DNA from: Hydrolagus affinis
Taxonomy: Eukaryota
DNA: 61,000 nt
NCBI GenBank assembly: GCA_012026655.1
Contig: JAAILG010001868.1
Coordinates: 1 to 61,000 of the forward strand
Direction: 5' to 3'
Positions 17,373-59,100 of this stretch are shown in pieces; position 1 is the first letter of the stretch, and the number at the start of each line of letters is the position of its first letter. The position numbers and the translations under genes were made by a program. The notes below the pieces were generated by a model that was given only the letters and a program-made list of their open reading frames with translations, did not search any database and had not been told where the DNA came from.

Positions 17373-17578
17373 ATGGAAGATTTCTTGCTAATCTAATTTC
17401 AGTGATTTCATCCAATTTCTATCAAGTAATGCTGTTTTTTCTCCCTTCACCACAAGAATTGGCAAATCCACACATTGATTCTTGTATTTAACCGGAACAC
17501 ACACTCTACCCACAACTGGGATGATCTCTCCTCCATAGCTACGCAGCTCGACCCTTGCTGTTTGTAGCTTATTTTTGC

Positions 17579-32293: not shown

Positions 32294-35200
32294 TCAATCC
32301 GTGCTTTCACCAGAAGGCGATCGTGTGCGTGACCTTACATGATCCCCAGACGCCAAAGAGGAATGGCCTCTCTGTTCCTTAGGAGGAACAGGTGATCTAC
32401 TCTCAGAGCGTGACCGGCTACGGCTTCGACTCCTGGACCGACTGTACGACTTGCGGCCCCTGGAGCGAGATCTGGAAGAACTTCGACTGCGAGATCGAGA
32501 CCTGCTGCGAGATCTGAAATTATAAAGCGAGTGAATGATTTGAACCGACAGAAATGTTGAGAGATATTCTATCAGCATTAGTTGTATAAAGCATTACAAG
32601 TTTTTGTTTAAATTCAATTCTATCCATCTTACATCCTATCACCTAAATGGGGGTGGGAAGAAGGAAAGAAAACGGATATACAGTCAACACTGTCATTACA
32701 ACCACGGGCAGAGAAGCAAACGCAGCAGGACACAGAGGAAAATGAAATTGTCAAATGTTGATTTACCTGTATTGTTTACGTTCTTCAATGAGTCTGATCT
32801 TCCTTCCATTGAGCTCTGTGCCAGATAGCTTGTCAAGAGCATTCTTCACATCACTGTATGAGGCAAACTCAACAATCCTATCAAAGAAACACAGTGGAGT
32901 TTTTAAAGTTAGGACCATTTCAACAGCCATGTTTTCTTTCCCTGACATACTAGTTTTATAGATCCAGTCAATGCTGTATCTGGTTTCAGCTACTGGACGT
33001 CCCAACTGAACAAATGTTAAGATCTTACAACAGCAGCAGAAAGGAAGTCGGAGTATATGTGAACAATACGATCGATTTACCAGTCAATTCTCTTCAAAAC
33101 CAATCAATTGAGCAGCAGATCCCCTTCCATTCAAATGGGAAACAAATCAATAAACCTCCATCTATGATTTCAGAAATTTATTTGGTTATTTCTGATTAGC
33201 AGCTTGGAACATCCTCCCAACATGAAATGCGCTATACAAATGTGGTATTGTTTTTGAAATGCCTGCGATTCTTACTGTGCTCAAAGCCCATGCCTGAATT
33301 TGATTAAAATGTAAAATTTAAAGTATAAATCAAATGCAAGTATATTTCTAAATATAAGCACGATAGAATTAAAATCAGTTAATGGCCAAATGAAAATTTA
33401 GTAGAAAAGTGAGATAATCAATTTTGAAATGAAGAAATTCACTGCATGAAAACAGAGAATATATCCATTCATGTTTATGCACAAGTAGAAATCAGTTAAT
33501 TGGCCAGTCAAGAGTTAGTTTGTTACAAATGCATTCAATTTGAATACCTTAAAATGTTGGTTGCAAAGTTTAAAGATTCCTCCCACCAGGATCAAGCAAA
33601 CGGTATCCTCACAGTGGCCATTAATCCACCATGAATGCTTACTTTTGATGAATGGCTTTCCTATGCGTCAGGACAGAATTTGGTTTCCGTGTTACATTGA
33701 GACACTGTCTTTCCTTATCCTGGAATATTGCAATCCAAATATCTAATCAGGTAATTATTTCTACAAGAATAATATCCTATTTCCATTAATAGATTTGGGT
33801 TACTGAGACTTGTATTTTTACTGTTGAATCGGGAAGCCCCACAATATCTGAGCAACGTGGACTGCTGAGGTATGAACTAGGCACTTCCTCCAAGAGGAAG
33901 GTGGGATAATTGAAGGAATATATTTGTCAGGTTGCTATTAGGAACCATCCAACAGCTGGTATCTGAGCTGCATTATCAGCACATTTGGTACCTCACACCC
34001 ACATATATTGTAAACCACAGATATTTTAAAATCCATTTCTTATAATAACTTACCCTTCATTTAGTTTGTGCCTATGCGCATCTGCAAAGGTAACTTCTCC
34101 AGCTTGTCTCATAAAATCTTTCAGGTCCTACATAAGACCAGATTAGTTAGGTAAAACAAAGCATGTTAACATACGTATACTATCATTTTCCAATGTAGAT
34201 CACTGGAAAAGCAAGCAAAAAAATACACAAATCTGATATCAAAATTTATATTACCTTCCTGACCATTCCCTAGGCTATTCAACCAGCCAAATGCAACAAG
34301 GATTCGCAGACGTACCACCACGATTGAAGACCAGATGGTTGTCTTCACCACCCGCTTGTCTGACACTACCCATTCGATGCGAGCCTTCCTGGACATCAAT
34401 CACCCTCCCTTAAAGGAAGAGTCTGGCATTGCCATAGGAACCAAGCACTGCTACTCTTGCGCCGTGACCAAGGACTTCTCGACTCACTCCAATCGAGCTT
34501 CCAACCAACCCAACTAGCGAATTTCGCTCATTCTTTCAATCAAGGACCTCATTTTAGAGCTGGCTCTCAGAACGCTCGGCTTTAGGGCACCTTGTTACCA
34601 GCATTTTCAGGCATCCAGCAAGGAAAACGGCACTAAACCCAGTGCCCATCATTGTTGATCAGACCACCACACACAGATCTAGATCACCAATTGACTGAAA
34701 CATAGGAGCGGACTGGCAATTCAACTAGGCCCACCAAGAAACCGAGCCAGAGCGATTAGGAAAACCAACGACACTCCTCGTCACAAGGCCAACGACAATG
34801 AGAGGCTGGTAAATAAAGGTTTTAACACTTGGTTAAATTTCAGAAATATTTGAACATTAAAAACTGAATAAAAATACATCTTAGTTGCAAGGTTAATAGA
34901 CAATCAATTTTTTTTAAAAAGCAACAGTACTTAAATTAATCTGGAAGACAATTAAAGTTTGCCCCCATTTTATTTAAACATTGCTTCCCCCACCCCCTTC
35001 ATTAAGTCTCATTATACATTCAGTAATTTTGAAACACAATCGCAACAGCATATACAAAAGAAAGGAAATCTAGGTAAAACATAGGTTAAGAGGGAAATGA
35101 AACCAGTCACAGGCACTGTGTCCCCTTAATATTTTCCATAATGGAGATCATAAGATCTTTATGTAAATTCTCTGTTCTGTCCCCTTTTAAGCTTTGTGCA

Positions 35201-38200
35201 CAAAATGTGTGCCATTCTGTTATTTTAGCTTTTGTCCAAAATTAGTAATATTGCATAATTTCTAATGAGTTACACACCCCATGGGATGAATCGGTGAAAC
35301 ATTTAATGTCATAAACTTGCTCAGGACTGGGGAGGTAACCTAGGCTTTACATAATTCCTGTTGTTTTGAACAGCTACATGTGCTTGCAATTATTCAAATT
35401 ATTAACATTATCTTAAATTCACAAAATCGAGATCTGGAATACTTTATACATGCATAAACATAGCTATTTAGCTAACACCTGGCAATGCCCCTCTAAAATA
35501 TCAAATTAAATTGTTGGTTATATTTAAGTTTTAGCAATCCACATAAAACTGGTCATTTAAATATAGAACAATCATATTTCCACACAACATACCTGCCAGC
35601 TAACTCTGGAAGATAAATTCTCAACAATCACTCGGTTTTCTGTACGAACTGGAGGTCCATTTCTGAAATGGAGAATTGTATGTTATGAGATGTCTCGACG
35701 AAGTGATAAGCTATATTATTATTCTGCCCACAAAATATACAGTCAATTCACTTTACAGAATATTCTGTGACATGTTTGGAGACACCTAGAAGACATGAAA
35801 AGCGCTATATCAAATACAAGGTTTATTATTGTTATAGCTGTAGAGAAGATTAATGATCGGATAAGGAAACAGGTCATTAGATAACACACTGGAGAAACCC
35901 TTTTTGCCTCTCTCAGGCCCTAGTCCTACCAAAGAACAAATTCTGTATAGACTGAGATCATCCCACACCGTGTATACCAGTGGTCAAACCTGCGACATTT
36001 TGTAGTGAGTTATTCAGACTAGATATCACCCAACATTTAACACTGTGACCATTATGGGTACAGAACGACCACAGTATGTTCAAATAACATTTTGTGTGAT
36101 GACACATTTTGAAATAGACAAAATATCCAGTGCATTATTTCCACTTTCGCAACTACCATTCAAAGTCTAGCTTCTATCACGTTACTATTTTGTTTTGATA
36201 TTGAAGGGAAGAAAGCACCAACAGTCTCACCTTCCTCCACCACGAGGACGGAGTTGACCAAATCGATATCGTCCTGGTCCTCGCCCACCTCCCCCCCTAC
36301 GTGCTCTAGCATGTTCCACTGTAACTCTGTAGGGAAAAAAAGTATCCATCGGTGTAGAATGCAGTCAGCTACGTTTTACTAATAACTAATAGCGTTTTAT
36401 AAACCTTCAGTTTTATTTGTGATGTGCTTACCTTTCATTACATAACTCTTTTCCATCCAGTTCATAAACTGCATCCTCTGCATCTCTGTAATCTTCAAAC
36501 TCCTAAATACAAACAACAAAACATTTTCAAATATAAGGAATTTAATTTTCAGTTATAGTTAAAACACTAAAAAAAAGCAAAGGATTTATGATGTTAGAAA
36601 CTCAATAGTTCCTGATTTAAAACTGACAGAACTCTATGAAACCAGCGATTATAGGCCATTTGCTTTGACATGAATAAAAATACTTCATGAAGACATTGTG
36701 AGCAATTCAAAAACAATTATTAAAGGCACATACACACGGAACAGATCGTATTTTATTTACTTTTTGTGGGGACAGCTGGCAGAAACTCAACATCATGCTT
36801 AAGAGTATCCAAACCAGACAGTTCCACATATGCATGCTACCTACACACGGAAATGTCCAAGTATGGAATGGAATGAGCACTACACTTACTTAATTCCAGA
36901 GAGCGTTGGGTAGTTTGGCAAAAGCCAAGGTTTGGAGTTCCCACAGCATGTGCTGGAATTTAACCAACTAAAACCACACCATTGGACACATTGTCTTGAC
37001 AACTTCCCCCTCTTTGTCCAGCTAGGCCCACTCCACCCATTAATGCTTTGGCCTGCAGGGTTAACATGGGCTAAGTAGGAAACATCCCCAATTCCGGATT
37101 GTCATCAGTTTTTGAATTGCTCACAATGTCTTCATGAACTATTTTTACTCCTGGAGTATTGCGGATCCACCTGATTCAACAACTGGATTACCGTGACCGG
37201 CAAGATTAATGATTCAATTTCAATACCTCATTGCCAAGCACATACCTTGGGAGTCAGCTCCCTTTAAGGATATTTGCTAGTTAATGTGGATAAAATATCT
37301 GCATTTTCATTTACTATTTCTCAATAATAAAGTGTATCAAAGCAGCTTAAAGCATACCAGTAGGGCCAGCATAGATGACCATCCACTTTCTTTGGGAAAT
37401 AAGGCACTTAAAAATAGCAAACTGAATCAATTCAAGGGACACACTGTCCAAACTTTCCGATCTTGAAGATATTTAAAACCCAAATGTATTTCTCTTCTTG
37501 CAAAATACTTTTACTCAACGGACAAACTAAAAGGACTTGTTGACAAAACAGATCCAAAGGAAATATGGCACATTCCTAGGTGCCAAACAGGAGGAGCTGA
37601 GGTAGGAGAACTTCAAATGTACTGTATCCATGGCCATCTCCTCAATGAGGTTATAGACTTAAACCAGCAAAAGTCCCCAAGAGACAATAAACTTTCAACT
37701 CCTATTCTCAAAATTGTCAAAGCAAAAACAATTCTAGCATAATGGTCCCCTTTGAACATTTATTTTTGGAATATTGAATAAGGAATAATAATACTAATCC
37801 TCGCATTTGATATAGCGACTTATCATATCTTCTAGATGTCTCAAAGCATATATTGTAAAGTGAATTGACTGCATATTTTGGGGGCGAAATGTGGCAGCCA
37901 ATTGTGCACAGCAGTGTGCCACCAACAATTGTGCATTGAGTGATCACATTATCATTTTATTTTTTTCCAAAGAATTATTATTCCCAGAAAATGATCTGTC
38001 ACCCAACTAACAACTGGGTTCTCACTTACTGCTAGGAAAACAGAGACTTGTGGAGTAAGGAAACATGCCCAACCTTTCACCCTTCCTGAAAATTAAACCC
38101 AGTTCTCTACCTTATGAGACAATTGCTCTAACCACTAAGTTACAGGACTCCACATTGGGGTCAGTAGCCATAACATAGCTACGATTCCCTGCTTGGAAAC

Positions 38201-40412
38201 TACAATTTTAGTGCTACCTCCAATATTCTCCAGAATAAATGTGACATTTTGGTTGAATTGAATGGTTGCCAGAAGTGCACTTCAAAACTAGGCCTCCAAC
38301 AAGGCAAATAAACAAAAGTGAACACACACATCAGAAAACAATTAACAGCTTACTGTGCATGTAGTTTGCAAAATACAATAAATGCATATGGAACTCATTC
38401 ACAAGTATCCTGAGCCCTTTTAGTGCCTAGAATTTACACCATTTACTACAGTAAATTCTTTAGTTATTCAAAAGTGCCACTAAAAGCCATCATTACTTTA
38501 TTATTATACTCCATTCTTGATTTCTCAAAAACACTCCTTGCCAGCCTCCCTATTTCCACCATCCATATCCCCCACTCCAGCCTTCATCAAGGCTCTTTGT
38601 CCCCAATAATCTCAATCTTAGAATTCACAACTAAATAGAAATCACAGAAGGATATGAAGAACAGGACAAGAATCTTAAAATTAAATAATCTGAGGTATTC
38701 AGAATCCAATAAAGTTTGATGAGTAGGAAAGTTAATGCAGAAAGAACACTGGCTCACATTTCCGGGCCAGTTGGAAGTGTTTAAGACTCTGACGAGGGAA
38801 GCCAGAGACAAGAAGCACTGCAAAAATACATTCTTGTGACAAAAGGCATAGGTTGTGTGTGACGATAGTGGATGTGAGTACACTAATATTCATTCAGGCA
38901 CATCAGTTTACAGACAGCAGCAACCAGAAAAAGCTGAATAGGTGCATACAAGTGCAGGTATATACAAAATACTTGACAACAGCAAATGTGCAAATTTGTG
39001 GGATGCTCATAGGCTGTAGCTGACTATGAGCAAGAAGTAATACCTCAGTCTGTAACACCTTGAAACCTTAACCATCTTCTCCAGTTTCCCCTTAGTTATT
39101 GGATCTCTCCCTCCCTCTCCATTTTTGTTTAAACCTAAACTGTACTACTTATACTGAACTTCACATCTGCCTTCCAAAACATTTTACAATCTATTAAGAC
39201 TACATCAGCTTATATGATATTTTTAATATTCTCCTGAATTTCCCATCTCTCTATTCAATTCTGGCATCTGCCCCTTTCCCGTGATTGGTCCCTCAGCAAA
39301 ATGTTACTTATATGATAATTTCTTTTCTAGATTCTGTTTGAATAACAAAATTACATTTGTATAGCACCTTTCATATTGGGACGATAATATTAATAATCCT
39401 TACATTTATATAGCACTTTCCACATCTTATCACGTCTCAAAGCGCTTTGTCCCAAGGCGCTGGACATTCAGGGTTTTGGACCTGAGCTGGGGATCAGGAT
39501 CAGGAAGTTTGCAGGGCGGGGGGGTTGCAGGGAATAAGTGCACTCACAGATTGAGTGCACAGTCAAAGAGGAGGGTCTTGAGATGGGGTTTTGAAGGAGG
39601 AAAGTGAGGAGGCAAAGCAGTTAAGACTGCAGGATGGAGTTCCAGAGGCTGGGGGCAGAGTGGCTGAAGGGGGACTTGAAACAGGCCTGAGATCACTGAG
39701 CAGAAGGAATGGGCAGGCTGGTAGAGGGTTAGGAGGTCACAGCATTAAAGGGTAAGACCATGGAGGGTTCTGAAGGTGAGGGCCAAGATCTTGATCCTCT
39801 GTGATGAGAAGCCAGTGGATTTGAGTGAGGATGGGGTTATTAGGATCACAGAGCCTGATGCAGGAGAGTACACAGGCTGCAAATTCTGGATGATCTGCAA
39901 CCTATGGAATGAGGAGTTGGGTAGGCCCACAAGCAGGGAGTTTGCAAGACTGGATGCATGTATGTATATATGTATGTATGAGAGTCTTGGCGGCCTGCGG
40001 TGTGACAGTAGCAGAGCTGGACAATGTTGACAAAGTGGGGGAAGGTCATGGCGCGGATACTGGGATATTTGAGGTTCAAAGAAGACGCAAGGTTCCGGAG
40101 TGTTACTCAGTGAATTGGAGTGTGCATATTCTTGGACGGTGATATTGTCAGCGCCTGAGATGTAAACTGCAGTAAACCTGAAGAGTTTGGGTGGTGGGGT
40201 TCCGTAAGTTATTGATCAAAGGGGAACTGGTTTCTGGGCACACTCGAAACTTCAATCACAATTTATTGCTGTGAGCGAAAACAGCTTACCACAAATCCAA
40301 ATCCATTCTTCAAATCAATTTCCCTAATTCGTCCATATCCCCTGAAGAATTTCTCCACATTTTTCTCGGTGGCATAAGGGCTCAGTCTCCCGATGAACAC
40401 ACGGGCACTCAT
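32294..40412 (-). CDS. SRSF5: Serine/arginine-rich splicing factor 5-like, copy A (254 aa)
   Basis: Coding exons 40412-40290, 36502-36432, 36326-36231, 35662-35593, 34127-34054, 32877-32767, 32513-32294 total 765 nt, open frame, all GT-AG. RRM1 ([18 protein letters not shown]), RRM2 with SWQDLKD signature, RS domain. Probable non-coding exon 1 near 41070-41170. Confidence 0.93.
34255..34805 (-). other. Poison (PTC/NMD) alternative exon of SRSF5 copy A
   Basis: Acceptor ..ctttatttaccAG at 34806, donor GAAG|GTAAT at 34254. In-frame stop at 34725-34727 ([26 protein letters not shown]). Alignable with B and C while the flanking long intron is not. Position inside SWQ/DLKD matches the known conserved unproductive-splicing region of SRSF4/5/6. 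Confidence 0.85.
36675..37147. repeat. 40-bp inverted repeat (36675-36714 / 37108-37147, 1 mismatch)
   Basis: taaaaatacttcatgaagacattgtgagcaattcaaaaac versus gtttttgaattgctcacaatgtcttcatgaactattttta. Confidence 0.92.
37785..38150 (-). mobile_element. tRNA-derived SINE, long variant
   Basis: Same family with an extra internal segment (cttactgctagg..agag). Confidence 0.88.
39343..40170 (-). mobile_element. L2 LINE 3' fragment with nested SINE tail, intron of SRSF5 copy A
   Basis: [31 protein letters not shown] motifs; similar to the 26700-27790 copy. Confidence 0.85.
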
Positions 40413-40779
40413 TTTCTTCCGACAATAATGTTGCAACTGGTGAAAGGAAACAAAAAACAATTCCTCTCTTATCAAGCACTTAACCTCAGGGGACAAAATC
40501 CCATGAAAGAAAGAATCTTTTTTACTAAATAAAAAGCAAATTCCCTAAGAATAATTTTTAAACAAAAAGCAATTTCCGATGATTTAACTCTCGACCACAT
40601 GGCCCCTGGGAGATCACAGGAGAGCCTCCTCCAATTCAGGCAGCTGTAGTAATACCTGGACCCCCTCTGGTCCGACCCCTTCGCTATCGGGGAATTCATT
40701 ATCCCCCCCCTCCCAACGGGAGCAGAGCGCACCCTCCTCCCAACTCCCATCAGAACGCAGTAGTAGAAGTTTCTTGCAC

Positions 40780-41230
40780 ACGAAAAGGTCTAACGCAGTT
40801 TCCTCCCCCTGGGCGTTTTTGGTTTAAAAATAGAAACCGAACGAACAAAGCCGCCATTCTCTGTCTCTCCCACTCACTCACTCACCCCCGGAGGGAGAAC
40901 TGCCGCGACGATTCACTCGGCCCACACTCAGGCCGAGCTCGGGAGGGTCTTTGAGGCCAAACTCTAACCCCCCACCTCCCCCCGCCCCCCCACCTCGCCT
41001 CGGTCTATCTGCCTGGCCTGACGGTTTCTTTTCCCGTTAGCATTTGGGATTCTGCCGCCGCGCCTTCTACCTGCTGGATCGGATCCTGCGATGAAAAACG
41101 GCGCCGCCACTGAAAGAGAGAGCGAGAGCTCAACAACACCTCACCTCAAAATGGAGCCCGACCCCACCGACCGTCACTCGGCAACCGGCCAGGATGCGTC
41201 ACTTCCGGCATCTTGAGCACCCCCCCCTCC
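40780..41230 (-). promoter_or_regulatory. CpG-rich promoter / non-coding exon 1 of SRSF5 copy A with overlapping ETS-CRE motif
   Basis: CpG-rich segment. Minus strand reads CCGGAAGTGACGCA at about 41195-41208; YY1-like AAAATGG near 41147; CAG|GTAG donor near 41070. Confidence 0.7.
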
Positions 41231-44200
41231 CATTCAATGAGATGAGAATCACCATGGAAACGGTGTTCCCACAGGCTGGCCTGTGTCCCCCCCCTCCGTC
41301 ATATACACACAGGTCAAAGCATGTCACACCATCATGATTATACACAGACCAGATGGTGCAATTCTTACACGCAGGATACATCATGCTAGACTACACAGAA
41401 CATGCTACAGACAGGATAATCTACAACAACTTGAGTTGATGTAGCACCAGTGTGTTAGACACGTTACACACAGGATCATGCACAGAGGATTAAAGTATTT
41501 ACACGGGATCAGGCCAGTGTTGTACACTTTACAGAAGATAACAACAAAATGACATTTATAGACCGCCTTTTACATCAGATGGACATCCCAAGGCACTGAT
41601 AACCTGTTACATATGGGCTAAAATGCAGCATTGCTACACAATATTACGCGGGCTGATGTATTTTTCAACACAGGAAGCACGAGTACTGTATACTGAACGG
41701 GAGAATGTGCAGGTACAAAATATGCTCATTCCAAAGCATAATTTATGTTAAAGAGGATAATGCACAGAATGTTACATCGGTAAGTAATTTGTTAGCCTTT
41801 GTTCCATCTATATATCGGCTATTGTGCAATGTACAGCCAACACTATTATAACTGTAGGAGTAATATTGATCAGCATTCCAAAGCCTAGTTGCAAAGCCAC
41901 CCAGAATTGTTCCAAAATGTCATACAAAGATCCCTGCTGAAATGTGCGTATGTGTGCCACTGATATGACCTGCCCTTTCTGATCTGTTAAGACTCCACTC
42001 CAAATGACGCACTCAACTTGTACACTCCATCCTACTTCATCCCTGCATTTGATTAGGCACGCTTCACAACAAATTGCCTCAAAGCACTCCCTAGATTTAC
42101 TATTTTGCAGGCAAATACCTAGCTATGTTCCAAGGAAATTTGGAAATGGACCGTGTTCGTTCACATGCTTGTTTGCCTTTGCATTTATAAATCAGTGAAA
42201 CCATGCTGTTCCATATTTTGCAATCATTCACCGCCTTGGGATGTCCTCTCAACATGAAAGGCACTTTACAAATGTAATTTTTTTTGTTGTCCATTTTGGG
42301 AGGCACAAAATACACAAGTCTCACCCTTGGTTTGATTCAAGTCCTCTTCAATCTTAAATTTATCACTAAATTCAAACTAATTGGAAACATCTCTATAGTG
42401 TGCTGCTAACTCATTAAACTGTCCTATTTAACAGCATTCACTCAATTTCTAGCAGCTACTTCTTTTTTAAAATCAGGACCTCGAGAGGTTCATCTTTAAA
42501 TTAATATAATATAAATGGAAAGGAGTAATTTATTTTGGATAGATTAATGTGAACTCAGGACCTTTGCTTTTACCATGTCCTATCTCAACAGTTTCTCCTT
42601 ATGTGTGCTTTGTTTCAAAATTTCACAGCAAAGGCCAGAGCCATCAACTTATTGCTTTAGTCTCCCTTGCTCCACCTATTCTTTTTATACTGTATAAATA
42701 CTTGCTGGTTAGTTGATGGTTGGTGGGTGGGTGGAGAGAGAGAGAAAAAAAGAACTTACCTCATACCATCTTTTCTCTACCACATTACTGGAAACTAGAC
42801 TATTAGCACTGCAAGAGCAACCATGGTGGGGGAGGAGGTTCTTTATCTGATTTATAAAAATACATAGTGCAAAGAAATCTAAGTGTTTTCTGGTAGGAAG
42901 CAGAAGAGGTCTCAGGTATATGTGATTGCACACAGGATGAGTTATGCAAGTTTTATTATAATAACAATCGTTGCATTTCATTTAATGCTTTTCACATCTT
43001 TTCGACGTCTCAAAGAGCTTCACAAAATTTAGTGCAAAGTGAATTGATTGTATATTTGCGGGTGAAATGTTGCAGTATGTTTTACTGCATATACACATGA
43101 TTAACAAATCCTATCAACACTTAAAACAATGTGCGTTTATAAAGAATAAATCCATCCAATCCAGTTGTTAAAGAATAAAAGCCTTACCAAAGAAGCCACT
43201 GATCAGGCAAGCTAGCTTCAAGCCAAACAGCCTGCAGCAATGGGCCACAATTATTTAGGATTTTCCCATAATAAACTGCCAGAATGGCATGAAGGGCTTT
43301 ATGTCAGAATATTATTTTATGTGCATGCTTTTTGTGTGGAAAGTTGCTTTACTGCCACCTCTGCCTTTGAAAATCTGGCAGAAAACAAGGACGTTTCCAA
43401 ATAATGCCTCTTTCAGCATGATCAACAATTGTATCCCAGTAGTTGGAATTAGTTTGCCAACAAAGTAACAAAAAAGGTACAAGTAGGCGTTTGCGGGTCT
43501 CAAAAGCTGAAATCCTATATGGCGACTCGTGTTGCAGGATGACACTCCAGTACTGTATTGGGTGGGGCACTGAATTGGAGATACAAGAGTGAATGTGGAG
43601 AAACCTACATTTACTCCAGAAAGATCATCCAGTCTCCATGCTAACTCATCTCAGTTCTTGAGCAGAAACAAGAGACAAGCATCAAGCAACAATCACTAGA
43701 AATTTCAAGTTCCAATACTTATGAAAGTATTTATATGGATTTATATGTATCTATATGGATCTATTAAAGTAGGTGAATTTCCAACTGACTGCCATAATCA
43801 GCATTTGATTATTCACCACGGTAAAAGTGTTGTTTCAAGTGCACCTTCTGCCCAGTTTGATGTACCAAACTACCACATATTTCCTGCCACGAGCCCCAGA
43901 TAGTGCACCATCTGTATTGAGAGCCAATAGTCAAGCAGGTGATGTGTAGTGTAAGAAACTCTACTAAAGTTCATTCTCTGAAGCATAGCCTCAGAAAATT
44001 GCAGATACTCGATTTGCATTGATGGCTCCACCACTGTTAAGCACCCGAGACACCACCTGGTGTGGAGGGCACTATAAAAGTGCAGTTCTCAGAAGTCAAC
44101 AGGATCACTTCTATTGTAAAACCTCAATAATTCGGCCTGGTCAGGACCACATACCTCCCGCATTTCAGTTTGCTGGTATTTAGAATATTGGGCCAACACA

Positions 44201-44692: not shown

Positions 44693-47600
44693 TTAATCTG
44701 CACTTTCAACTGAGGGTGATCGGGAACGAGACTTTGACCGAGACCGGGTTCGAGATCTTGCATGCTCCACTGAAGCGGATTTCGCAGGCGATGGTGAACC
44801 GGCTTTTTGTTCCTTGGCTGGAGCAGGCGATCTGCTACGAGACCGGGATTTACTACGGCTCCTACTCCTGGATCTACTCTTTGATCTAGTGTAGGACCTA
44901 CGGCTCCTAGAACGAGATCGACTGCGAGATCTGGAAGAGCTACGGCTACGGGAACGAGATCTGCTGCGAGACCTGAAAAACAAAGTACAGAATAATTAAA
45001 GCTAAAATAAGAAATGTGTTATATCACTAAATTGTTGCAAAATCCTGATCGTGCATTAACTCATCCTTTGTGCATTAACTCATCCTGTTAAGTTGGTGGG
45101 CAAGCTGTAGCAAGATACTTAAGACATGAATATGCAAATCATGGGAATTTGAATTGGCACTTGAATAACCTACAAAAACCCAATAAAATTTTGTGAATCG
45201 AACACCAAATTAGACTAATAACCAGATAGAATATCCATTTACCTGCCCTGCTTGCGTTCTTCAACAAGTCTGATCCTCCTTCCATTGAGTTCTGTACCCG
45301 AGAGTTTGTCAAGAGCATTCTTCAAATCACTGTACGAGGCAAACTCAACAATTCTGGAAGGAAAAACGTAGAAAAACCTTGCTGCAAAAGTAACATTTGT
45401 AAGAATAACAGCTTGTATTGCAAGTGACCAATGAGATTTGGGAGGGCAAAACAGACAAATCTGGTCACATAACTTTTTACAGTACTGTATTCAAATATTG
45501 AAATGGTAGCTTCCAATTTCTAACTAATAAACTAAGTTTATTGCAGAGAAGTGAGGTGATGCATTTTTGGAGGAAGCATGAGTAGCAGCAATGTACACTA
45601 AATGGGAGCAGATAAGCACAAGCAGAAAAGGGGTAGGGAAAGAAAGATCAAGGAAAAAATTAAGTGGCGCACTGAAGATGAGTTGTTGATGAATCAAAAC
45701 AAAAGAAGGCAATAGTGGGAGGTTATAGAAAGAAAAGATGCATCAAAAACCCAGACAATGTTTGAATGGTCATAGAAGACGAATGAGGGGGAGGCTAGGC
45801 TGAGAAGATGGTTCTAAGGGGTTCAAATCAATATTGAGGTAAGAGAATGTGTCAAGGAGATAGGTGACCTTACAGCCCACTGGCCTCAACATTGATTTTA
45901 ACCACTTCAAACCTTAAACAATCTCCAATCTTTTCTAAGTCTTAAAGCGCTCTGATACGCCGTCCGGAGTGGAGGGCGCTATATGAATCAAAGTTGTTGT
46001 TGTTGTAAGCCCTGCCTGCCCCTTCCCCTTTAACCATTCACAGATCAAGCAAAACTGTCTCAACTAATGCATGGGTTGGTAACCAGGGTACACAGATCTA
46101 AGATAATTGACAAAAACACCAGAGGGGAGATGAGACTATTTTCCTCCCCCCCAAAAAATAAGAGCTGTTAAATTGGAGCGGATTGTGGAAATATTCAATA
46201 ACTCAAAAAGGAATTGGATAGGTACTTGAAAAGGAAAAATTTGCAAGGACATGAGGAAAGAGCAGGTGAGTGGGACCGATTGGGTAGCTCTTCAAAAGAG
46301 CCAGGAAAGGCACGATGAGCCAAACGGCTTCCGTCTGTGCATTCATTTTCCACTATTATACGTATTTGGCTCACCAATCAAGCAGCTATATTAATGGTAC
46401 ATTAAACTTAAAAACTTCAATTTAACGCAGAGATGCTCGTTTAGTATTTAGCATCCTTGCCCCAAAGGCATTTCCTAATTGAAGATTAAAACATTAGTCA
46501 GCAACACACATCTACTATCCATTTAGTAAGTTACAAGTAATATTTGGCAGGCAATATATTTGTCATGTACAACCACTTTTGTTAATCAGCAGATAGTGTC
46601 ATTTAGATGAGCAACAATTCCAAGCATCTAAATACAAGTTAACATGTTCCTACACCTTACCCTTCATTCAGTTTGTGTCTGTGTGCATCCGCAAAGGTAA
46701 CCTCTCCAGCCTGCCTCATGAAATCTTTCAGATCCTATGTAAAACGAGATCAGTTAGTTAAAAAGTAGTTATTTTCCAATATACTAGTTATTTTCCAATA
46801 TACTACATCATTGGAAAAGAATTTTTTTAAAAGCAATTCTAATGGCATCAAAATTTATATTACCTTCCTGTACAATTCCCTAGGCTATTCACCCAGCCAA
46901 ATGCAAAAGCCTTTGTAGAGGCACCACCACGACTGGAGATCAGATAGTGCTCTTCACCACCCACTTGACCGCTGCTACCCATTCGATGCGAGCCTTCCCG
47001 GAACATCACCCTCCCTTAAAGACAGACTCTGGCATTGCTATAAGAACAAGCACTGCTACTCTTGCGCCATTTCCAAGGACTCCTCACCTCATTCCAATCG
47101 AGCTTCCAACCAACCCAACTAGCGAATTTCTCCCATCTTTCAATCAAGGACCTCATTTTAGAGTGGGCTCTCAGAGCTTGACTTTAGGACACCTTGTTAC
47201 CAGCGTTTTCGGCGTGCAGCAAGGAACACTGGCACTAAACCAGTGCCCACCCGTGAAGGTCAGACCACACACAGATCTAGATCACCAATTGACTGAAACG
47301 TAGGAGCGGATTGGCATTTCAACTAGGCCCATCAAGAGACCAAGCCAGATCGATTAGGAAAACCAACGGCACTCCTCGTCACAAGGCCAACGACATAACG
47401 AGAGGCTGGTAAATAAAGGTTTTAACACTTGGTTAAATTTTGTAAACATTTAAACACGAAACCAAACAAATTTCACACTCAAGGCTTTCAAGGTCAATAG
47501 ATATACAATATCTTTTTTAAAAAAGGTTAGCTACTCAACATGGAGCAGTATTTAGTAAAAATATCAAAACTGACACTTTACTGTGAAACAACTGAAACTC

Positions 47601-50600
47601 AAAAAAATTGATGACAGTAAGACACTCACTATCTTGAAACTATTTTCTGGTTTCTCAAAAAAAAAATTTGATCAGGTTTCTCGGTGCCACTCACCATTCC
47701 CCTTCTGAGAGTAGGCTGACCAACAACTTCTTGCCATTAATATTGAGAGCAGGCATGTGGGTGTCTAAGATGCTGGTGACCTTCCCTCTTTAAGAAGTGA
47801 CTGCCCACCCCCACCCAAAATCATCTAAGAAGCTTGCCTCGCCTGTGGGGGAGAATTCACACTCGTTCCAATTTCCACCTATTTCTCTCTGTACTTCCCC
47901 AAGCAACAGACAGTGATTCTCAATAGTATACAGTATTAGATCACATTCTTAAAAGCTCAATGTCTAGGTTCTGAGGGCAAAGCAATTCAGGGCACAAGAT
48001 AACCCATCACTTTTTTGAAGTTTTCCAAAATAGTGACTTTAAATGTTTGCAATACCTATTTTCTTCCTTTTGTAAGTAAACAGGACTGAAAACATTTAAA
48101 AGGAAACAAATGTTTAATGGATTCTACAAAAGACAATCCTAAAATGCTAATTTGAACTTTCACCACTATCAATAAAGCTAGTCTACAGCAATCACAGCTC
48201 CACCTTAAGAATTTCTGTACCATTTTACATTTTTTTTACAGTAGAGGAGCACAAATTTTTCCTGTTAATTGCTTTAAAACTTTTTTTAGTAGCCTAAAGG
48301 TTCAGTAAATAGCCTTTCCTCTGATGCTTTCCATCTTTTGTTTAAGTTTTTTTAATTATAAAAAAAGCATTTTAATCGAGTCAACTATAAAGAATGCAAG
48401 TTTCCCTTGTGAGTTCCTCCATATCCCAATCTAGAATATTACCTTACTCACAACTATCTATTCCTTGGTTCTCTCACCAAAAAGAATGTTAAATGGTAAA
48501 TTCTGAGCAGTTACTTACTTACCTTCATTAAAGAAACCCCCTGCCACCAAAAAACTAATCTCAAAATATATTCAATTGTCACTGATTGCATTGCTGGCAC
48601 AAGTTGACAGCCATATTTGCCTACATAAGTCACTGCATACAGAATACTACATACACCGCAAAGTACTTTGACATGCTGAAGCACTATTTGAAATATATAT
48701 TTGAAGTATTTGATTTGGTAAGAGGGAAAAGGCTAGCACATGAGCTCACTAGCTTAAGCAATTCAGGAAGACATCACACTTGTGTGGCCTTCACTGTAAA
48801 TTGAGGCTTAAGTAACCTTGAAAGCTTTATTCACATTTCATTGCAACAGAATTCAGTTTTAGTTGAAATTAATGAATGATCATCTTATTTCACAAAAAAA
48901 AACAATGTAACGTTACATACCTGCCAGCTAACTTTGGAAGATAAGTTCTCAACAATCACTCGGTTTTCTGTACGAATGGGAGGCCCATTTCTGAAAACAA
49001 AAGTGCAAGCTACATATAACAAATCACATTTATATAGTTCCTTTTACATAGGGCAACATCTCAAAGATATGTGGCAATGTCAATTAAGAGACAAAGTAGG
49101 CACCGATACAATAACAACAAAATGACATTGGTATAGCATATTTAATGTCCCAAGGCGCTGGATAGACAGTATTCCGAATCCAAGATGGGGATAGGGATTG
49201 ATGAGGGAAGCAGGCAAGGGGGGAAAAAAGACATGGATCGAAAGCAAAGTCAAAGAGGGCCTTGAGGTGGGTCTTGGAGGCAATGGATGGCCAAGGTGGA
49301 GGAACTGCAGGATGGAATTAGAAGGTGGGAGCAGAGAAGCTGAAGGCTCGCCCCTGCCAATGGTGGGATGGGTGAGGCAGGGGACACGAAGTAGGCTAGA
49401 GTCCAAAGAGCTGAGGGAGCAGGAAGGATAGTAGGGGGTTAGGAGATCGCAGGTAGGGGGAGCACGGCCATGGAGGGCTTTGAAGGCAAGGATCAGGATC
49501 TTAAAGCCCTCCATGGCCTTGCCCCGCCTTACCTCTGCAACCTCCTAACCCCCTACCAACCTGCCCGCTCCCTCCACCCAGTCAACTCCATCCTGCTCCA
49601 TCTCCCCGACCCAGACTCCCCTCGATAGTCAAGCTATCAGCCATTCTGCCACCAACCTCTGGAATTCCAGCCCACAATCCTTCCGCCTCACCCCTTTCCT
49701 CGCCCCTTTTAAGTCCCACCTGAAGACCCTCCTCTTCGAAGAGATGCCATCCAGCGTGAAGGGCGCTATATAAATCAAAGTTGTTGTTGTTTGAAAGGCG
49801 CAACACGAATGTCATTTTGTTGTTGTTCATACTGTTCACAAATCTTTTATTATAAAATGCCCAGAGAACTAAACTCACCTTCCTCCACTTCGAGTCCAAC
49901 TTTGATTAAATCGACCTTGAAATCGTCCTCGTCTTCCACTGCCACGAGTTCTAGCGTGTTCAACTGTAACTCTGAAGAAACAAATTGTCAATGCCTGCAA
50001 GACTAAAGGCACAATCAAATACAATGGAGAGCTAATTAGCCACACTAATGGTGAAAAGGAAACCATGGGGATAACTGGTTGTCACAAGATACAAAATAGC
50101 TCTAATGCTAACCCAAAACAGGAATTACACAGGCACTAGTGCCAAACTGTCAACTCAATTTTTCTCTTTAAACTTTCTGCATCTTTCTACTTCACATTTC
50201 TTCTCTCCATTTGACCGTCTTATCTCTCTCAACCAACTACTGTACCAACTAACTTTTGCAGGCTCGTCACTAAGATTTATATCAGAGTAGCATGAAATAC
50301 CTACCTACTTACAGATACAACATATTCCTAGTAATCTTGCAAACACAAATGCAACTAGTTATGACGGTTATATGACATGACCCCATTACTCCCACCATCG
50401 TCCGGCTCCATTGGCTGCCCATCTTCCAGAGGATCGAATTCAAGATCGTCGTCCTCACTTTCAAAGCCATTCATGACCCTTCCTATCTCTGCGACCTGCT
50501 GCCTCAACCTGTCTGCCTTTTCTGTTCAGCTCCATTTCTCCCACCTGACCCACCCTACCATCGGTAGCCGAGCTTTCAGCCTCTCTTCCCTCACACTCTG

Positions 50601-51170
50601 GAACTCCATCCCAACATGAAAGACACCTTATAAATGTCATTTTGTTATTGTATTGCAACCCCAGGTTTAATTCTGCATTCAGAATTCAATGCGGATAAGT
50701 GGACATGTAGATAACAGTTTACCAATCAGCAGTGTTCTAATTTTAGATAATGAAATCTAACCTTTCATTGCACAACTCTTTTCCATCCAATTCATAAACT
50801 GCATCATCAGCATCTCTGTAATCTTCAAACTCCTGAAAGAAAAAATAAGATATGCTTTCATGCCACCATAGAGTAAAGCTGATAAATTTCCTCTAACCAT
50901 AATTTATACTAGAAAATGTCTCTCTTCTAAGTAATCTGGAAAGGAAACTTGTACATCTTCAGACAGCGGCTATAATATTAAATGCTGCAAAATGTTACTA
51001 AATTAAATAAGTCTGGCTTGGCTATTATACATTAAAAAAAAACTCACCACAAATCCAAAGCCATTTTTCAAATCAATCTCTTTAATTCGTCCATATCCTT
51101 TAAAGAATTTCTCCACTTTTTGTTCAGTGGCATAAGGGCTCAATCGCCCAATGAATACACGGGAGCTCAT
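44693..51170 (-). CDS. SRSF5: Serine/arginine-rich splicing factor 5-like, copy B (273 aa)
   Basis: Coding exons 51170-51048, 50832-50762, 49971-49879, 48990-48921, 46734-46661, 45353-45243, 44972-44693 total 822 nt, open frame, GT-AG. Same RRM-RRM(SWQDLKD)-RS architecture. Non-coding exon 1 ends at a CAG|GTAAG donor at 52863. Confidence 0.93.
46040..46360 (+). mobile_element. CR1-type LINE 3' fragment
   Basis: aaaaggaattggataggtacttg..gagccag..cacgatgagccaaacggcttcc; related decayed reverse copy near 22380-22660. Confidence 0.7.
46864..47405 (-). other. Poison (PTC/NMD) alternative exon of SRSF5 copy B
   Basis: Same acceptor and donor as copy A; reads PLVMSLAL*. Confidence 0.85.
49110..49826. 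mobile_element. Two L2 3' fragments joined in opposite orientation (- 49110-49500, + 49501-49790)
   Basis: ggccatggagggctttgaa versus ttaaagccctccatggcc across the junction; L2 tails at both outer ends. Confidence 0.8.
50385..50652 (+). mobile_element. L2 3' fragment in an intron of SRSF5 copy B
   Basis: LHWLP..RIEFKI..LTFKAIH-type sequence followed by an L2 tail. Confidence 0.8.
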
Positions 51171-52439
51171 TCCAAATAAAGTATACGGTTGCTAAAGTGA
51201 ATAGGAAAGAAAAACAACCATCAAAGTAAATCTAACTTATTACCACCAGAAAAGTAACAAAAAGAACTCAAACAACTCGAGGTTAAATTACTGGAACTAA
51301 ACCAGTGAATAATCTGATTACAACATTTATTGAACACCTTTCACTTCAGGAGGACAATATGCCTTTAAACAAATCAAGACAATTTAAACTGCTCCTGTCT
51401 GTCCCTGCAAGCCAACTGCAAAATTGAATCCACTATCTATGGGAATAGAAATCTCAAAGGTATTTTCCATATTCCCCATCTCCCCAATTAACATCAGACA
51501 AAATGTAGCATTTAGTATTGTCATACTCCCAGAATGCTTTTTAATTGCTGCAGAAATGTTTACATTGGAAATCATTGGCAATTAATATTATGTCCTTTTC
51601 TAAAAAGGTGAGGTTCTCTCAAAAACCTAATCTTGAATTATATTAATGATAACATCAAAAACATTGCCTCTAAACCTCGATGGTGAAGAGGGTCTATTGC
51701 GGGGGGGGGGGGGGGAAGGGAACGATCCGTGAGGCAACTGGTTGAGAGAAAAACTGATAACCTCATAGATGTGATCAAAACGCACTTAAAAATATTCATT
51801 CCATTTAATCTGATGTGGTAGAGTGCCACAGGGCTTTCCCAGAACTTCCAGCAATTATTGCCATGTAACGAGTAACAGTTACTCTTTTTTCTTAATAGTT
51901 TGTAAGAGCAGTGCCGGTTAACCAGACCGGGTTAGTCTCCACCACACAGCTACGTGGCGCACAAAGGCTCTTAAGAAATAATAACCTTTTTTTAAAAAAA
52001 ATATATAAAACAACTAACTTTCGTATGGTAATGTTGCAAAATGAAACCCTTTCAATTGAATCCTAGGCCTGGGAGTGCATATTGGGCACAAACTAGCTGC
52101 TTGGGAACATGGTAATCGATACAGGCGATTCATCCCCAAAAGAGGCGTTTAACACCCGCTCTCGACCAACATTAACCCTCTCCTCAAGCTTCTTTTTTGG
52201 AAAAAAAAACTCCAGCAAATAACGCCCCCCATAAAACGATCAACGAAAATCTCCAGGAAATAACGCCCGAAATATCTACCGAAAAAAAATCTACAGCATT
52301 GACCCCCCAGCCAGCACCCACCAGCCCCCCCCCCCCCACCCCCAAAAAAGCATCAAAATTTCTAGCAAATTTCACCCCTGCCCCCAATAAAATTATCCCG
52401 AGTATTGACACCCCGTGAAATCGTGCACAAGAATCTCTC

Positions 52440-53255: not shown

Positions 53256-53349
53256 AACCTGGAAGCTCAGCGAGAGGAATGGACTTCTTCTGTTGTTTTC
53301 CCCTTAACACCTTAGGTGGAATTTAAGATGATAAGATACGTAAGTGTGT

Positions 53350-53790: not shown

Positions 53791-56135
53791 ACAACATACA
53801 AATGAGTGAGCATGGCTGCAAAATTCTCAAGTGTTAAATAGCCTGCCAAGACTCACCGGTTTGGAACGTACTGGAGAAGACACTTCAATAAAATATCAAC
53901 ATCTCAACTGGCTCAGTTAGCAGTATTATTCTCACTGCTGCATCAGATGGTGGAATCAGGCCTTTGATCTCCGTCTATTCTAAGACTCCAATGCAGTCTG
54001 GCCAACGATCCTCCAAAATAAAATTGGTCATTCACTTACTTCACGGTTCTTTGTGATTATCCTCAGTGGGTGGGGGGGTTCACAGGCAACTGGCTGCTAA
54101 GGTGACATGCCTTGTAATGGTAATTGTCAGGAATCTGAATCGAGCCAGCACTGGGTCGGTCTGGGTAACCTGGTTCCTGAGCCAGGCAGGTCTGCAGTGA
54201 AGTGATAAGGCAGTATAACAAGAATGTGACCATAACATTGATATAACGCCTTATTACATCTGCCTAGGATTCTGATATAGCACCTTTTCGCTTCTGATTA
54301 CAACACAACCAGTTTGGCTCATTGGCATGATTACTGGGGGCAGAAAGCTTAGCTCCTGTTATCCCCAGGAGCCAAAGCCCTAATGGGTTGAGTGGTCCTA
54401 GCTGGAGGAACAGAGGGAAAGTTTGTAATATCAGTGGCAAACTGCATCTTTATGTATTTATAATCCAGCAGTATCCCAACACATGTTCTGGGGTCCCCAA
54501 ACCCTGGCTCTTGCCAACCTGCACCTCATCTGGAATTGGATAAACAGAATGAGTACCTCTTGTGAGATTATGAGCATTCCATTCAAACAATCGATCCGAG
54601 ATAATTAACAAAACTTAAATTTCAGTAACAAAATGGAACTGTACAATGAACCCTTGACTCCAGCTCCAAAAGAAAATATTGTTAATGTTTTCTTGGGGAA
54701 TGTTACATTAAGTGTTAAACTTTGCCTTGTATGTGATAAAAGCAAGATTAAGTTACAATAAAAAGAAACAAATCCAGGGGCAACACTTATCTAAATTCAT
54801 AGATTGTTATTCTTTATCATCTAATTGAAGTGCCATACAGAAAATCCAAAATATCACTCGGCCAAAGTGGTGGGGTGCTACAATTGAACTCAATGTCTAG
54901 TAGTCAGTCCATAGTAATGATCTGTGAGCCAGCACATACATTTCCAAATTTGTAGTGTGTACCGTTGTGAACCCTGGTGTTTCACAATTCAAAGGAATGG
55001 ACAAGGTTTGAGGTTGCCTTCTAATTTTCAAGTTACTTAAAGTTATGGGAGGGCATGGGAAATAACGAGAGATTGAATCAGAATGTGCTGTCTCGCAGCT
55101 CAAAATTAGAACTGGCTTCGGAGGCCAAACAGGCTTCAGGAAACAAAGCTCAGCTGCAACAACTCACCTGAATTCCTTAAGGTATCATTACCTTGGGAGA
55201 TAGGCATGTTTAAGCAGGAAAATACCATTAACCAACACAATTCTGCTAATATCGTGTAACAGAATAAGATGAAATCATCACACTTCACCTGCTTGATATG
55301 GTGTGATGTGTTTACCAATTAAAAATACTTTTCACAATTCAATACTTTTTTCCTTAATATAAAGCACAGTACAGACCTGTCTTTTTGGTACAATGTGTAT
55401 CTTTGTGATTAGAACTTTACAAGATAGAAATATGTCATTTAAATAGAATCTGTCACATCAATAAACAGCCTCAAATCATCTTCTGGGAATCTAGCCACAG
55501 TAATATAATTAACATCGGAAAATGTGACAATGGTTTTCCCATAGCACATAATCAAATTCTTGCACTTCAGTGGTATTTTGTTGACAGCTAGGAAAGACTA
55601 ATAATCATAATCTGATCATTTTACTTCATATACTGATCCACATACATATATGTATGAGGGTTGGGTGAGTACGGGAAGAGAGAAAAAAAAGTTTATAAAA
55701 TACATCCAACAAAGATTACAAAGACACTCTCACCAGTAATTGGTATAATTTTTATTTAAAGCATACACAAAACAGGATTTCATGCCATTATGTTTGCCAC
55801 AGATGGATGTTTTTCCAGTCGGGGATGGGTAGGGCAGGGAGAGAAGGGATTATGAAAACAAATTGATGCATTTCTAAAAGAAAACTATATCAAACAAGCA
55901 ATCACACATTCATATGGGGGAAGAATCAGTATCCTGTGCATAAAAATCTTAAGTACTGCATATGAGAATACAATTTGAATGTACTTCCAGTAGCTGCAAG
56001 TATTGAAATTCTAACAAAATTAGATTATTTTAACAGAAATTTACCACTTCCTACTTACCATATTTTACATTAGTTTTCACTAACTTGGGGGTAAAAGTCC
56101 ATTTTCACTATATTAACGTATGCCACAAGCACCAT

Positions 56136-59100
56136 TTAATCTGCACTTTCAACAGAAGGCGATCGTGAACGTGAACGGGATTTTGATCGTGACCGTGAAC
56201 GAGATCGAGATCTTGCCCGTTCCACTGACGCAGATTTGGACGGAGTAGGGGAGCGGCCTTTTGGTTCCTTGGTGGGAACAGGTGATCTACTACGAGAACG
56301 GGATTTACTGCGGCTCCTACTCTTAGACCTACTGTAGGATCTGCGGCTCCTGGAGCGAGATCGGCTGCGAGATCTGGAAGAGCTACGGCTTCGGGAACGA
56401 GATCGACTCCGAGACCTAAAAAAAATCAAGAGAAAGAGCAACTGAAGCAATCGATTTGACATGTATTACAATTTTACTATCAGAATATTCTAAGTACAAA
56501 TCAGGCAAAAAATTGACATTCATGATGATCGCATATTGGGAGATCTAATACTCTCCACTGAAAATAATCCTCCCACACCGTGATGTGCCAAGCAGAGGCC
56601 AATACATTTAACTATTTAGTGCCCCAATTTACCTATACTGTTTTCGTTCCTCAACCAGCCTAATCTTTCTTCCATTGAGCTCTGTGCCAGAAAGCTTGTC
56701 TAGAGCATTCTTCAAATCACTATAAGAGGCAAATTCAACAATCCTAGGAGCAAAGAAAACACATTTTCAGTGAGAATATTTCCAGCAATTAAAAGTTATT
56801 TGAAAATATCTAATAGGACAATGGTTATGCAAATAATTTGAATAGACATTTTAAACTCTACACCAGGTTTAGATAACTAACCAAATATTCAAACTTTGCA
56901 AGTACGCATCTTTGTGTAATAATGCACGTCTGTTTATAATAAATGACAGTAGGTATAGTTTCCAATATTCACATTGTGTAATGCAAATGGATCTTGATTA
57001 TCTGAAGCAAATAATCCTTGCATTTGATATAGCGCTTTTCACGTCTTCTAGATGTCTTAAAGCGCTTTACAAAATTTACTGTAAAGTTAATTGAATGTAT
57101 ACTTGTGGAGAAATGAGGCAGCCGATTGTACTCAGGAGTGCACCACAAACAGTTGTAGCTCGAGTGACCACATATTTTTGAAGAATTATTATCCCAAAAA
57201 AGCGATCTGCCAATCGACTGACAACCCGGTTCCTACTTACTGTTAGGTAAACAGAGGTATGTGGAGTAAGGAAGCCCAACATTTCACCCTGCTGGGAATT
57301 CAGGTCTGTCGCTTAAGAATCCAACGCTCTAACCACTGAGCCACAGGACTTCACAAATACTACTATATAGATTAGACTGAATTTATATAAACAAGTCACT
57401 TCCGTTAACTTACCCTTCGTTCATTTTGTGTCTGTGTGCATCAGCAAAAGTAACTTCTCCAGCCTGTCTCATGAAATCTTTGAGATCCTATGCAAGATCA
57501 GATCACTTAGGTAAAACAAAGCACATTCACACATTAATTCTATAATTTTCCAATAACATGACTGGAAAAGGAAATACACAATTCTAATGTCAAAATTTGT
57601 ATTACCTTCCTGTACCATTCCCTAGGCTATTCACTCAGCCAAATGCAACAAGCACTCGTTGAGGTACCACTACGATCGAAGACCTGATGGTGCTCTTCAC
57701 CACCCACTTGACCGACACTACCCATTCGATGGGAGCCTTTCCGGACGATCACCTCCCTATAGGCAGATTCTGGCTTTGCCATGGGAACGGGGATTGCTAT
57801 TCTTGCTCCGTTAACAAGGAGTCCTCACCTCACTCCAATCGAGCTTCCAACCAACCCTACTAGCGAATCGCTGGCCTCACACTTTAGTGGGATCTCAGAA
57901 CTCTCGACTTTAGGACACCTTGTTATCAGCATTTTCAAGGACGCAGCAAGGAAAATGGCACTAAACCCAGTGCCCACCAATGTTGGTCAGACCAGCCCAA
58001 AACAGATCTAGATCACCAACTGATCCTGAAACGTAGGAGCGATTAGGAAAACCAACGACACTCCTCGTCATAAGGCCAACGACACAAAGAGAGGCTGGTA
58101 AATAAAGGTTTTAACACTTGGTTAAATTTCAGAAAACAATTGAACATTTAAAAAAAAACAGCAAATCATATAGTAAAGGCTTTCAAGGTCAGGAAACTAA
58201 ATATATACATATATGTATAAATAAAACTGTTCTGCTCATTTAGCTACTCTAAAAGTTAAATAGAAATTCCATCTTCCATTTTAGAAAGCAATAATTACAC
58301 TAAGTATTACCCCAAAAAATTAACACCTATTCTCCTGTGTACTGAGACCATCTATGATCAGAGGGTGGAAGACATGTCAAAGCCAACCGCCACCGAGACC
58401 AATCAATTCTATTTAGCGCGATTCACAGGCACGATTTCTGAACAATCAGGTCACAATGGACCAGATGCCTCCTCCCCATCACTCTTTATTACCTGTGGGT
58501 GCCACTCATCCAAGGATGCAAGCGACCCTTTCTTTACTTGGGGAGCACGCCCAAGAGGCCACTCCTCACACTGTTTGGCAATTTGCCATGAAGGAGTATC
58601 TTATACATCTGTATCTTATACATCCTTCACCTATGTCTATAACAATTTCAGCAGGAGTGGAGCAAACAAAATTTAAATGACTAGAGCACAATTTACTTCA
58701 ATAGAGTTGCGCGTTCTGTAAATATCACTCAAAATTTTAGGACTAAGCTACTTATCTACCTATCCACTTAGCTACCTATCATTAAGAGTCCATTTACAAT
58801 AATGGGGTAGGAAGTGACATTCTTAGAAAACAGTAGTGGCCTCTGTATTTGTGATTTAGAAATTGAAAGGCCTTTCCCCTTCCCCAGACATTGTAAAAAT
58901 GATACAGGTTCATACTTTGAGGTCAATCGCTTTGTTAAAAGTTTGCTATTTTATCAATAAACTGTCACATACAGACGGGGTCTTGTCCAGTTATTTTCTT
59001 GGTTTAGATAAAACTATTGAACTAATTTCATAGATTTGCAAAGCAAACACATGGAAGTCACTTCTGCCCTTTATTGCGGCTGGGTCTCAACTAACCTTGA

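Follow-up and report, generated by a model that had tools for sequence, protein, structure and literature searches.

The SRSF5 intron 5 poison element in three tandem paralogs of Hydrolagus affinis

The window, that is, the whole stretch of DNA analyzed here, is one entire 61-kb contig (JAAILG010001868.1) of the 1.1-Gb genome of Hydrolagus affinis, and its right half carries three tandem minus-strand SRSF5 genes, designated A, B, and C. Each paralog contains an element of 490 to 550 nucleotides (nt) in the intron that separates SWQ from DLKD, which corresponds to human intron 5. The element is the published intron 5 poison exon of SRSF5, also called SRp40 (Lareau and Brenner 2015, PMC4379411), and not a new element, and it is highly probable that the copies in A, B, and C work as such. 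Comparison of the copies supports purifying selection on the element as nucleotides and not as peptide. The event itself is known; the tandem triplicate and a ranked map of sub-elements are new here.

The intron 5 element in the three paralogs

Exon structure and exon phases are the same in the three genes, each of which encodes RRM1, an SWQDLKD-type RRM2, and an RS domain; together with SRSF5-type intron positions and the SWQ/DLKD intron, these features place A, B, and C in the SRSF5 subfamily. The genes and the parts of the element are as follows.

32294..40412, minus strand: SRSF5 paralog A, seven coding exons, intact open reading frame
44693..51170, minus strand: SRSF5 paralog B, seven coding exons, intact open reading frame
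56136..60635, minus strand: SRSF5 paralog C, seven coding exons, intact open reading frame
34255..34805, minus strand: poison exon A, 551 nt, TAG at 34727-34725 after 26 codons; contigs of a related species cover 34255-34695
46864..47405, minus strand: poison exon B, 542 nt, TGA at 47381-47379 after 8 codons (PLVMSLAL); covered whole by these contigs
57606..58094, minus strand: poison exon C, 489 nt, TGA at 58070-58068 after 8 codons
34128..34254 (A, 127 nt), 46735-46863 (B), and 57488-57605 (C), minus strand: short downstream intron, 118 to 129 nt, retained in contigs for A and B
34800..34840 (A), 47400-47440 (B), and 58089-58129 (C), minus strand: 41-nt invariant block with predicted branch point, pyrimidine tract, and acceptor

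The exon limits given in the original prediction were confirmed by an acceptor, CAG|CCT, at 34805, 47405, and 58094 and a donor, AAG|GTAATA, at 34255, 46864, and 57606. The donor is also conserved in an amniote SRSF5 locus (L009). Relative to exon A, exon C has deletions of 44 nt and 18 nt. The prediction that the frame is not kept, with 26 codons read in A and 8 in B and C, also held. The stops lie 462 to 515 nt ahead of the exon end, two further junctions follow downstream, and every one of the three frames of the element contains 5 to 13 stops. Nonsense-mediated decay (NMD) is expected where an in-frame stop lies more than about 50 to 55 nt upstream of a later exon junction, and the stops of all three poison exons are so placed.

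The elements of A, B, and C are 87 to 89% identical in pairwise global alignment and 84 to 88% identical in a five-way alignment, and 78% of the element columns are invariant across the three. The four-fold sites of the RRM exons are 45 to 68% identical, with a synonymous divergence (dS) of 0.63 to 1.42, and the difference between the element and the four-fold sites of the whole coding sequence was significant (Fisher P, 2e-11 to 2e-14). The original prediction was to be given up if the elements proved no more alike than synonymous sites; their identity (84 to 89%, against 45 to 68% at four-fold sites; P of 2e-11 or less) was far higher. The part of intron 5 that precedes the element, like four further intron stretches, aligned no better than shuffles.

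Long shared blocks had been proposed as a feature of the exon. The blocks are real, but the longest, of 41 nt, is the branch point and acceptor region, with the predicted branch point near 34833 in A, and lies mostly upstream of the exon as first drawn. This invariant run of 40 to 41 nt was significant (P = 0.004), as was the number of invariant runs of at least 12 nt (11, against 5.6 expected; P = 0.002). For scale, an ultraconserved element is defined by a stretch of at least 200 nt that human and rodents share without a difference. A single invariant run of at least 23 nt was not significant (P = 0.27), since such a run is unremarkable where 78% of the columns are invariant. Four of the five motifs originally listed as shared are exact in all three copies; the fifth is kept at 17/17 positions in A and C but at 16/17 in B.

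Transcripts of a related species and the known SRSF5 event

Four contig sets from two studies of a related species were placed on positions 32100-51300. All six introns of A and all six of B were seen as joints, indicating that the contigs are spliced RNA. A joint that skips the element was found for B in 4/4 runs and for A in 2/4. Contigs that pass from inside the element over the donor and the intron of 127 to 129 nt into exon 6 were found in 4/4 runs for both paralogs, and one X5 contig extends on through spliced exons 7 and 8. Skipped and element-containing forms are thus both present for A and B in this species, although contigs indicate presence and not levels. A clean cassette exon was not seen in these contigs, which run through the donor.

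In A, B, and C alike, a second AG precedes the acceptor by 22 nt (34829-34828, 47429-47428, and 58118-58117). If used, it would place a stop after one codon in each of them. This AG is missing from the amniote locus and from a broken fourth SRSF5 copy elsewhere in the Hydrolagus genome (pseudogene L007), and the lone-Cys tail that it would produce was found in none of 135 proteins. Contigs of runs X1 and X4 stop at 47429. This agrees with the upstream AG, but just as well with a break of the assembly graph at the 41-nt repeat that the paralogs have in common; in run X5 the end is at 47408, which fits the acceptor at 47405.

According to PMC4379411, intron 5 of SRSF5 carries an alternative exon in every animal tested, accompanied by flanking retention. 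The human expressed sequence tags of that study comprise 20 with the upstream junction, 5 with the downstream junction, and 68 with downstream retention. The event occurs in SRSF5 and SRSF5a of chicken, frog, and zebrafish; cartilaginous fish do not appear in its table. The Hydrolagus element resembles this event in gene subfamily, intron, early stop, homology to the amniote copy, and skipping together with flanking retention, and its position and its homology to the amniote locus bear out the original assignment to SRSF5 intron 5. It differs in that three tandem working copies and a pseudogene copy are present, in the length of the downstream intron, which is 118 to 129 nt where the amniote locus has about 470 nt, and in stops after 26, 8, and 8 codons, against 16.

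The included form is degraded by NMD in human cells, in the fly, and for zebrafish srsf5a (PMC4379411, PMC7354994), and inclusion in zebrafish srsf5a rises without upf1 (PMC7354994). In the mouse, detained introns flank the Srsf5 poison exon, which needs Srsf4, and respond to Clk (PMC4281565). Element-containing transcripts with an unspliced flanking intron are common to that system (Boutz et al. 2015) and to the one described here; nuclear location, NMD insensitivity, and the Clk response are features of the mouse system, while the transcripts considered here are known from contigs only. SRSF5 binds around its own exon, its depletion lowers inclusion from 10% to 4%, and the transcripts are found in speckles (PMC10726014). 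SRSF3 promotes the SRSF5 exon (PMC3439968).

By analogy with the mammalian work, SR proteins (SRSF5 itself, SRSF3, and SRSF4, tuned by Clk) would bind the element and favor splicing to its acceptor. As mammalian and zebrafish studies suggest, the resulting RNA may then stay in the nucleus, its short downstream intron still unspliced, or be completed as a cassette and destroyed by NMD; coding mRNA would be the outcome of skipping. In this way the element likely shuts down gene output as it does in other animals. The RRMs are nearly identical among the three proteins, so that each would read all three elements. A single dosage feedback loop is therefore likely common to the copies, and this would account for the survival of the element in all of them after duplication. 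The frame could drift because reaching a stop suffices. The constraint would lie mostly in primary sequence (splice signals and putative protein-binding sites), with local stems possibly contributing.

Retention of a regulatory exon after duplication is also seen in paralog pairs that keep or cross-regulate their NMD exons, such as SRSF4/SRSF6 and SRSF5/SRSF5a of chicken, frog, and zebrafish (PMC4379411), and homologous NMD exons are found in the further pairs hnRNP D/DL, hnRNP L/LL, and RBM5/10 (PMC7354994). Unlike those pairs, Hydrolagus has three tandem copies, whose elements are 84 to 89% alike at a dS near 1. In open-access text, no description of tandemly expanded SRSF5 genes was found for cartilaginous fish.

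Several points weigh against the interpretation of the element as a working poison exon. The contigs come from a related species, their RNA status was guessed (none of the runs with this stretch is recorded as RNA), and they are graph paths rather than molecules. They cover A and B, while C lies outside 32100-51300. No joint at the element donor or acceptor was found among the joints listed (15 of 197), so that the cassette form is putative in this organism. In addition, intron-retaining Srsf5 transcripts of the mouse are not NMD substrates (PMC4281565), indicating that poisoning by NMD may cover a minor form only.

Conserved sub-elements, structure, and reading frame

A metagenome pattern scan gave two loci, one of which (L009) is a real amniote SRSF5; the other (L010) was rejected as a chance match. 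The same pattern scans gave no locus in prokaryote genomes and none in viral contigs. The L009 element is 64% identical to the Hydrolagus elements and contains perfect blocks. It matches 69% of the columns invariant in A, B, and C, against 50% of the variable ones. Within invariant blocks of at least 12 nt, 83% of the columns (160/192) match L009, against 55% (111/202) of the remaining invariant columns, a comparison that has one outgroup and is circular in part, because blocks of this kind serve the aligner as anchors. The 41-nt acceptor block is identical at 32/40 positions, and the following blocks were also kept.

34755..34797, minus strand: 5' block of the exon, three runs kept at 13/13, 12/12, and 14/16 positions
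34690-34673 (within 34629..34690), minus strand: conserved block, 16/18
34342..34379, minus strand: purine-rich 3' blocks, 13/14 and 12/12
34249..34281, minus strand: pre-donor block and donor, 14/17 and 8/13

Three 10-nt middle blocks were poorly kept in L009 (4/10, 1/10, and 2/10). The block listed first in the original prediction is also weak there, with 17/24 positions kept. The deep blocks hold purine runs of the GGAG and GAAGA types, which are typical of SR-protein enhancers; the SR-binding sites of the original prediction stay putative. The element of pseudogene L007 is 75% identical to that of each paralog, and its exons have lost identity even at codon positions 1 and 2 (77 to 87%, against 94 to 98% among A, B, and C), a sign of decay.

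These comparisons suggest that the use of the paralogs as a footprint of the sub-elements that matter was partly right: long blocks are deeply conserved, but only some of them survive in the amniote. Ranked as kept are the branch point and acceptor block, the first 50 nt, 34690-34673, the purine-rich 34379-34342, and the pre-donor block, and copy C indicates that 44 nt and 18 nt can be lost. The sequence requirements of these exons were described in 2015 as "not yet dissected" (PMC4379411). The present ranking, drawn from three working copies that have diverged, the pseudogene, and the amniote ortholog, helps to map the bases that matter and can serve directly as a plan for minigene or antisense mapping.

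The blocks had also been proposed to act as structure, and local folding predicted the following.

34704..34782, minus strand: predicted stem, arms in the region of 34782-34772 and 34710-34700
34681-34660 and 34646-34629, minus strand: two predicted small hairpins

The 7-bp core of the stem (34778-34772 with 34710-34704) has a pair probability of 0.82 to 1.0 in A, B, and C, and the stem has folding z scores of -1.0 in A, -2.9 in B, and -3.1 in C. In the amniote, 6/7 core pairs are possible, but another partner is predicted. The hairpin at 34681-34660 is predicted in all four working copies, with a probability above 0.9 in A and the amniote and of 0.3 in B and C, and with z scores of -3.5 in A, -2.7 in the amniote, and -1.3 in B. 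For the hairpin at 34646-34629 there is a counterpart whose loop differs. A possible acceptor helix shows one double change, from A-U to G-C, in the amniote, and a hairpin over the predicted branch point has 6 bp in A, B, and C (pair probability, 0.54 to 0.65), with 5 bp possible in the amniote. RNAalifold, given three sequences, proposed a long-range helix in which the acceptor pairs with the 3' purine block; this was rejected, as it formed in only 1/4 working copies (B), at four temperatures.

An alternative reading places the constraint mainly in RNA structure: a fold would conceal the acceptor and branch point until a protein or temperature opened it, and binding motifs would be secondary. 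The stem supports such a fold, in that the 44-nt deletion of C takes out the enclosed part alone and leaves the stem intact; so do the hairpin common to all working copies, the acceptor helix with its double change, and the precedent of SF3B3, where a stem-loop of 14 to 17 bp conceals a branch site before a poison exon (PMC11162794, which does not mention SRSF5 in the part available). Short direct repeats flank the deletion of C, however, so that slippage suffices to explain it. Covariation was not above shuffles (27/500 and 53/500, for 41 chosen pairs in five sequences), though the helices had been picked from these same sequences, and no folding excess was found across the element in 29 windows of 80 nt compared with 39 intron controls (best mean z, -1.8). 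A hairpin over the branch point is predicted both here and in SF3B3, but here it has 6 bp, with no covariation among the working copies, and a stem of at least seven continuous pairs with at most one mismatch, as in the SF3B3 type, was not found. The fold as principal constraint is considered improbable, and it would refine rather than replace the reading of the element as an SR-regulated poison exon. The local stems are predictions, the structural role proposed for the blocks is putative, and a structural contribution stays a possible lead. Also doubtful is a more specific model, in which a fold at the 5' end of the exon (acceptor helix, AGGAG/CUCCU stem, and twin hairpins) would gate the oldest known conserved unproductive splicing event, with the three copies forming one dosage loop with copy-specific set points. 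No paper on structure in the SRSF5 poison exon was found by title or abstract start in the open-access literature; in the parts available, PMC11346455 deals with temperature and does not mention SRSF5, and PMC10796970 deals with Sox9.

Recent duplication or local gene conversion within the tandem array, in place of selection, would also make the elements alike. The tandem arrangement favors conversion, and the short downstream intron is likewise 78 to 83% identical among the paralogs. Against this stand the synonymous divergence given above and the introns on either side, which cannot be aligned. The contigs of the related species match A or B at 98 to 100%, and changes in the element are far fewer than in the adjoining intron: element B differs from that species by 1 substitution and one 1-nt gap in 542 nt, and the upstream intron of B by 22 substitutions and 3 gaps in 388 nt (P = 4e-8). 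Element A shows 2 changes in the 441 nt covered, and both short introns together show 10 in 256 nt. The blocks, moreover, persist in the amniote. Together with the stability of the B frame described below, these results make conversion or recent duplication very unlikely as the cause.

In 19 of 124 related proteins, SWQ is followed by a C-terminal tail that begins with Pro, as the CAG|CCT acceptor gives; the tail-bearing proteins are mostly annotation models and not proteomics. Tails of 16 amino acids occur in orangutan, pigeon, tuatara, and coelacanth and follow the frame of A in the first codons. Tails in the frame of B and C have 8 amino acids in two frogs and 7 to 8 in two rays, and 11 teleost records have tails of 24 to 56 amino acids. 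The end PLVMS(L/W)AL was found in 6/11 further proteins, from rays, sharks, and one transcript contig. The annotated isoforms and the one transcript-derived protein imply that the acceptor is used. As read from these sequences, the frame flips between vertebrate lineages and the version of B is stable over sharks and rays, which argues against recent conversion. The constraint on nucleotides and the differing frame agree with the original view of the element as conserved as RNA and not as protein. A Mobula isoform (P0133) has another tail after SWQ, which implies a different intron 5 acceptor in that paralog.

The same tails could be taken to mean that the element is kept because it yields a shortened protein, with one RRM and a brief tail that has a function. 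The recurrence of an identical PLVMSLAL in six database records, from sharks, rays, and one transcript contig, fits this, as do the VVGL-TRS that the frame of A has in common with amniotes and coelacanth and the presence of truncated isoforms in annotation. Tail length and frame, however, vary among paralogs and lineages (7 to 56 amino acids), conservation extends 460 to 515 nt beyond the stop, and stops crowd all three frames, so that there is very little chance that a tail peptide accounts for the element. An independent small RNA gene or an intronic DNA enhancer, for which high conservation alone would speak, is the least probable explanation of all, as there was no match at the element at the Rfam gathering score (the only two hits in the window are tRNA-like and lie elsewhere), conservation with L009 starts at the branch point and stops at the donor, and the element is joined to exon 6 in contigs.

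Gene copies and neighboring features

The closest proteins to A, B, and C are SRSF5-like proteins of sharks and rays; the best match of A is a whale-shark protein (92%) and that of B a ray protein (91%). In a 33-row tree, A, B, and C fell inside an 11-row clade of cartilaginous fish (support, 99/96; bootstrap not settled) and separate from SRSF4/6. In a 16-row tree, they fell on the SRSF5/5b side, separate from srsf5a (99/98), in a clade of their own (94/91). Forks inside the cartilaginous-fish clade are open in both trees, which assign A, B, and C to no particular shark or ray genes. Further copies and a neighboring gene are listed below.

G000:C44381, 1011-3116, elsewhere in the genome: pseudogene L007, with exon 1 frameshifted, exons 3 and 4 without a match, and the remaining exons decayed
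G000:C36130, 2-6063: L008, a distinct srsf5a-type gene of the same genome
20472-21023 of the window, plus strand: sodium/bile-acid symporter exon (PF01758), convergent with SRSF5 A

A genome search found no match to the poison element in intron 5 of L008. Exon 1 of L007 looks closer to a shark and ray copy that begins with RERDVEKFF. In Stegostoma and Hemiscyllium, the accessions of srsf5a and of the B type are almost consecutive on one chromosome, a hint of a single cluster. The symporter exon is likely SLC10A1, a gene that presumably adjoins SRSF5 in human as well.

A broken long terminal repeat retroelement lies at 14707-18610 on the minus strand, and its domains for reverse transcriptase, RNase H, and integrase each occupy a different open frame. 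A repeat of about 300 nt is present in many copies (8028-8335, 19772-20086, 28619-28930, 37786-38154, 57010-57355, and others), two of which have tRNA-like heads in Rfam, and is likely a family of short interspersed elements. The starts of the 3' untranslated regions of the paralogs (31994-32293, 44393-44692, and 55836-56135) aligned better than shuffles, and a donor-like site lies shortly past the stop codon in B and C.

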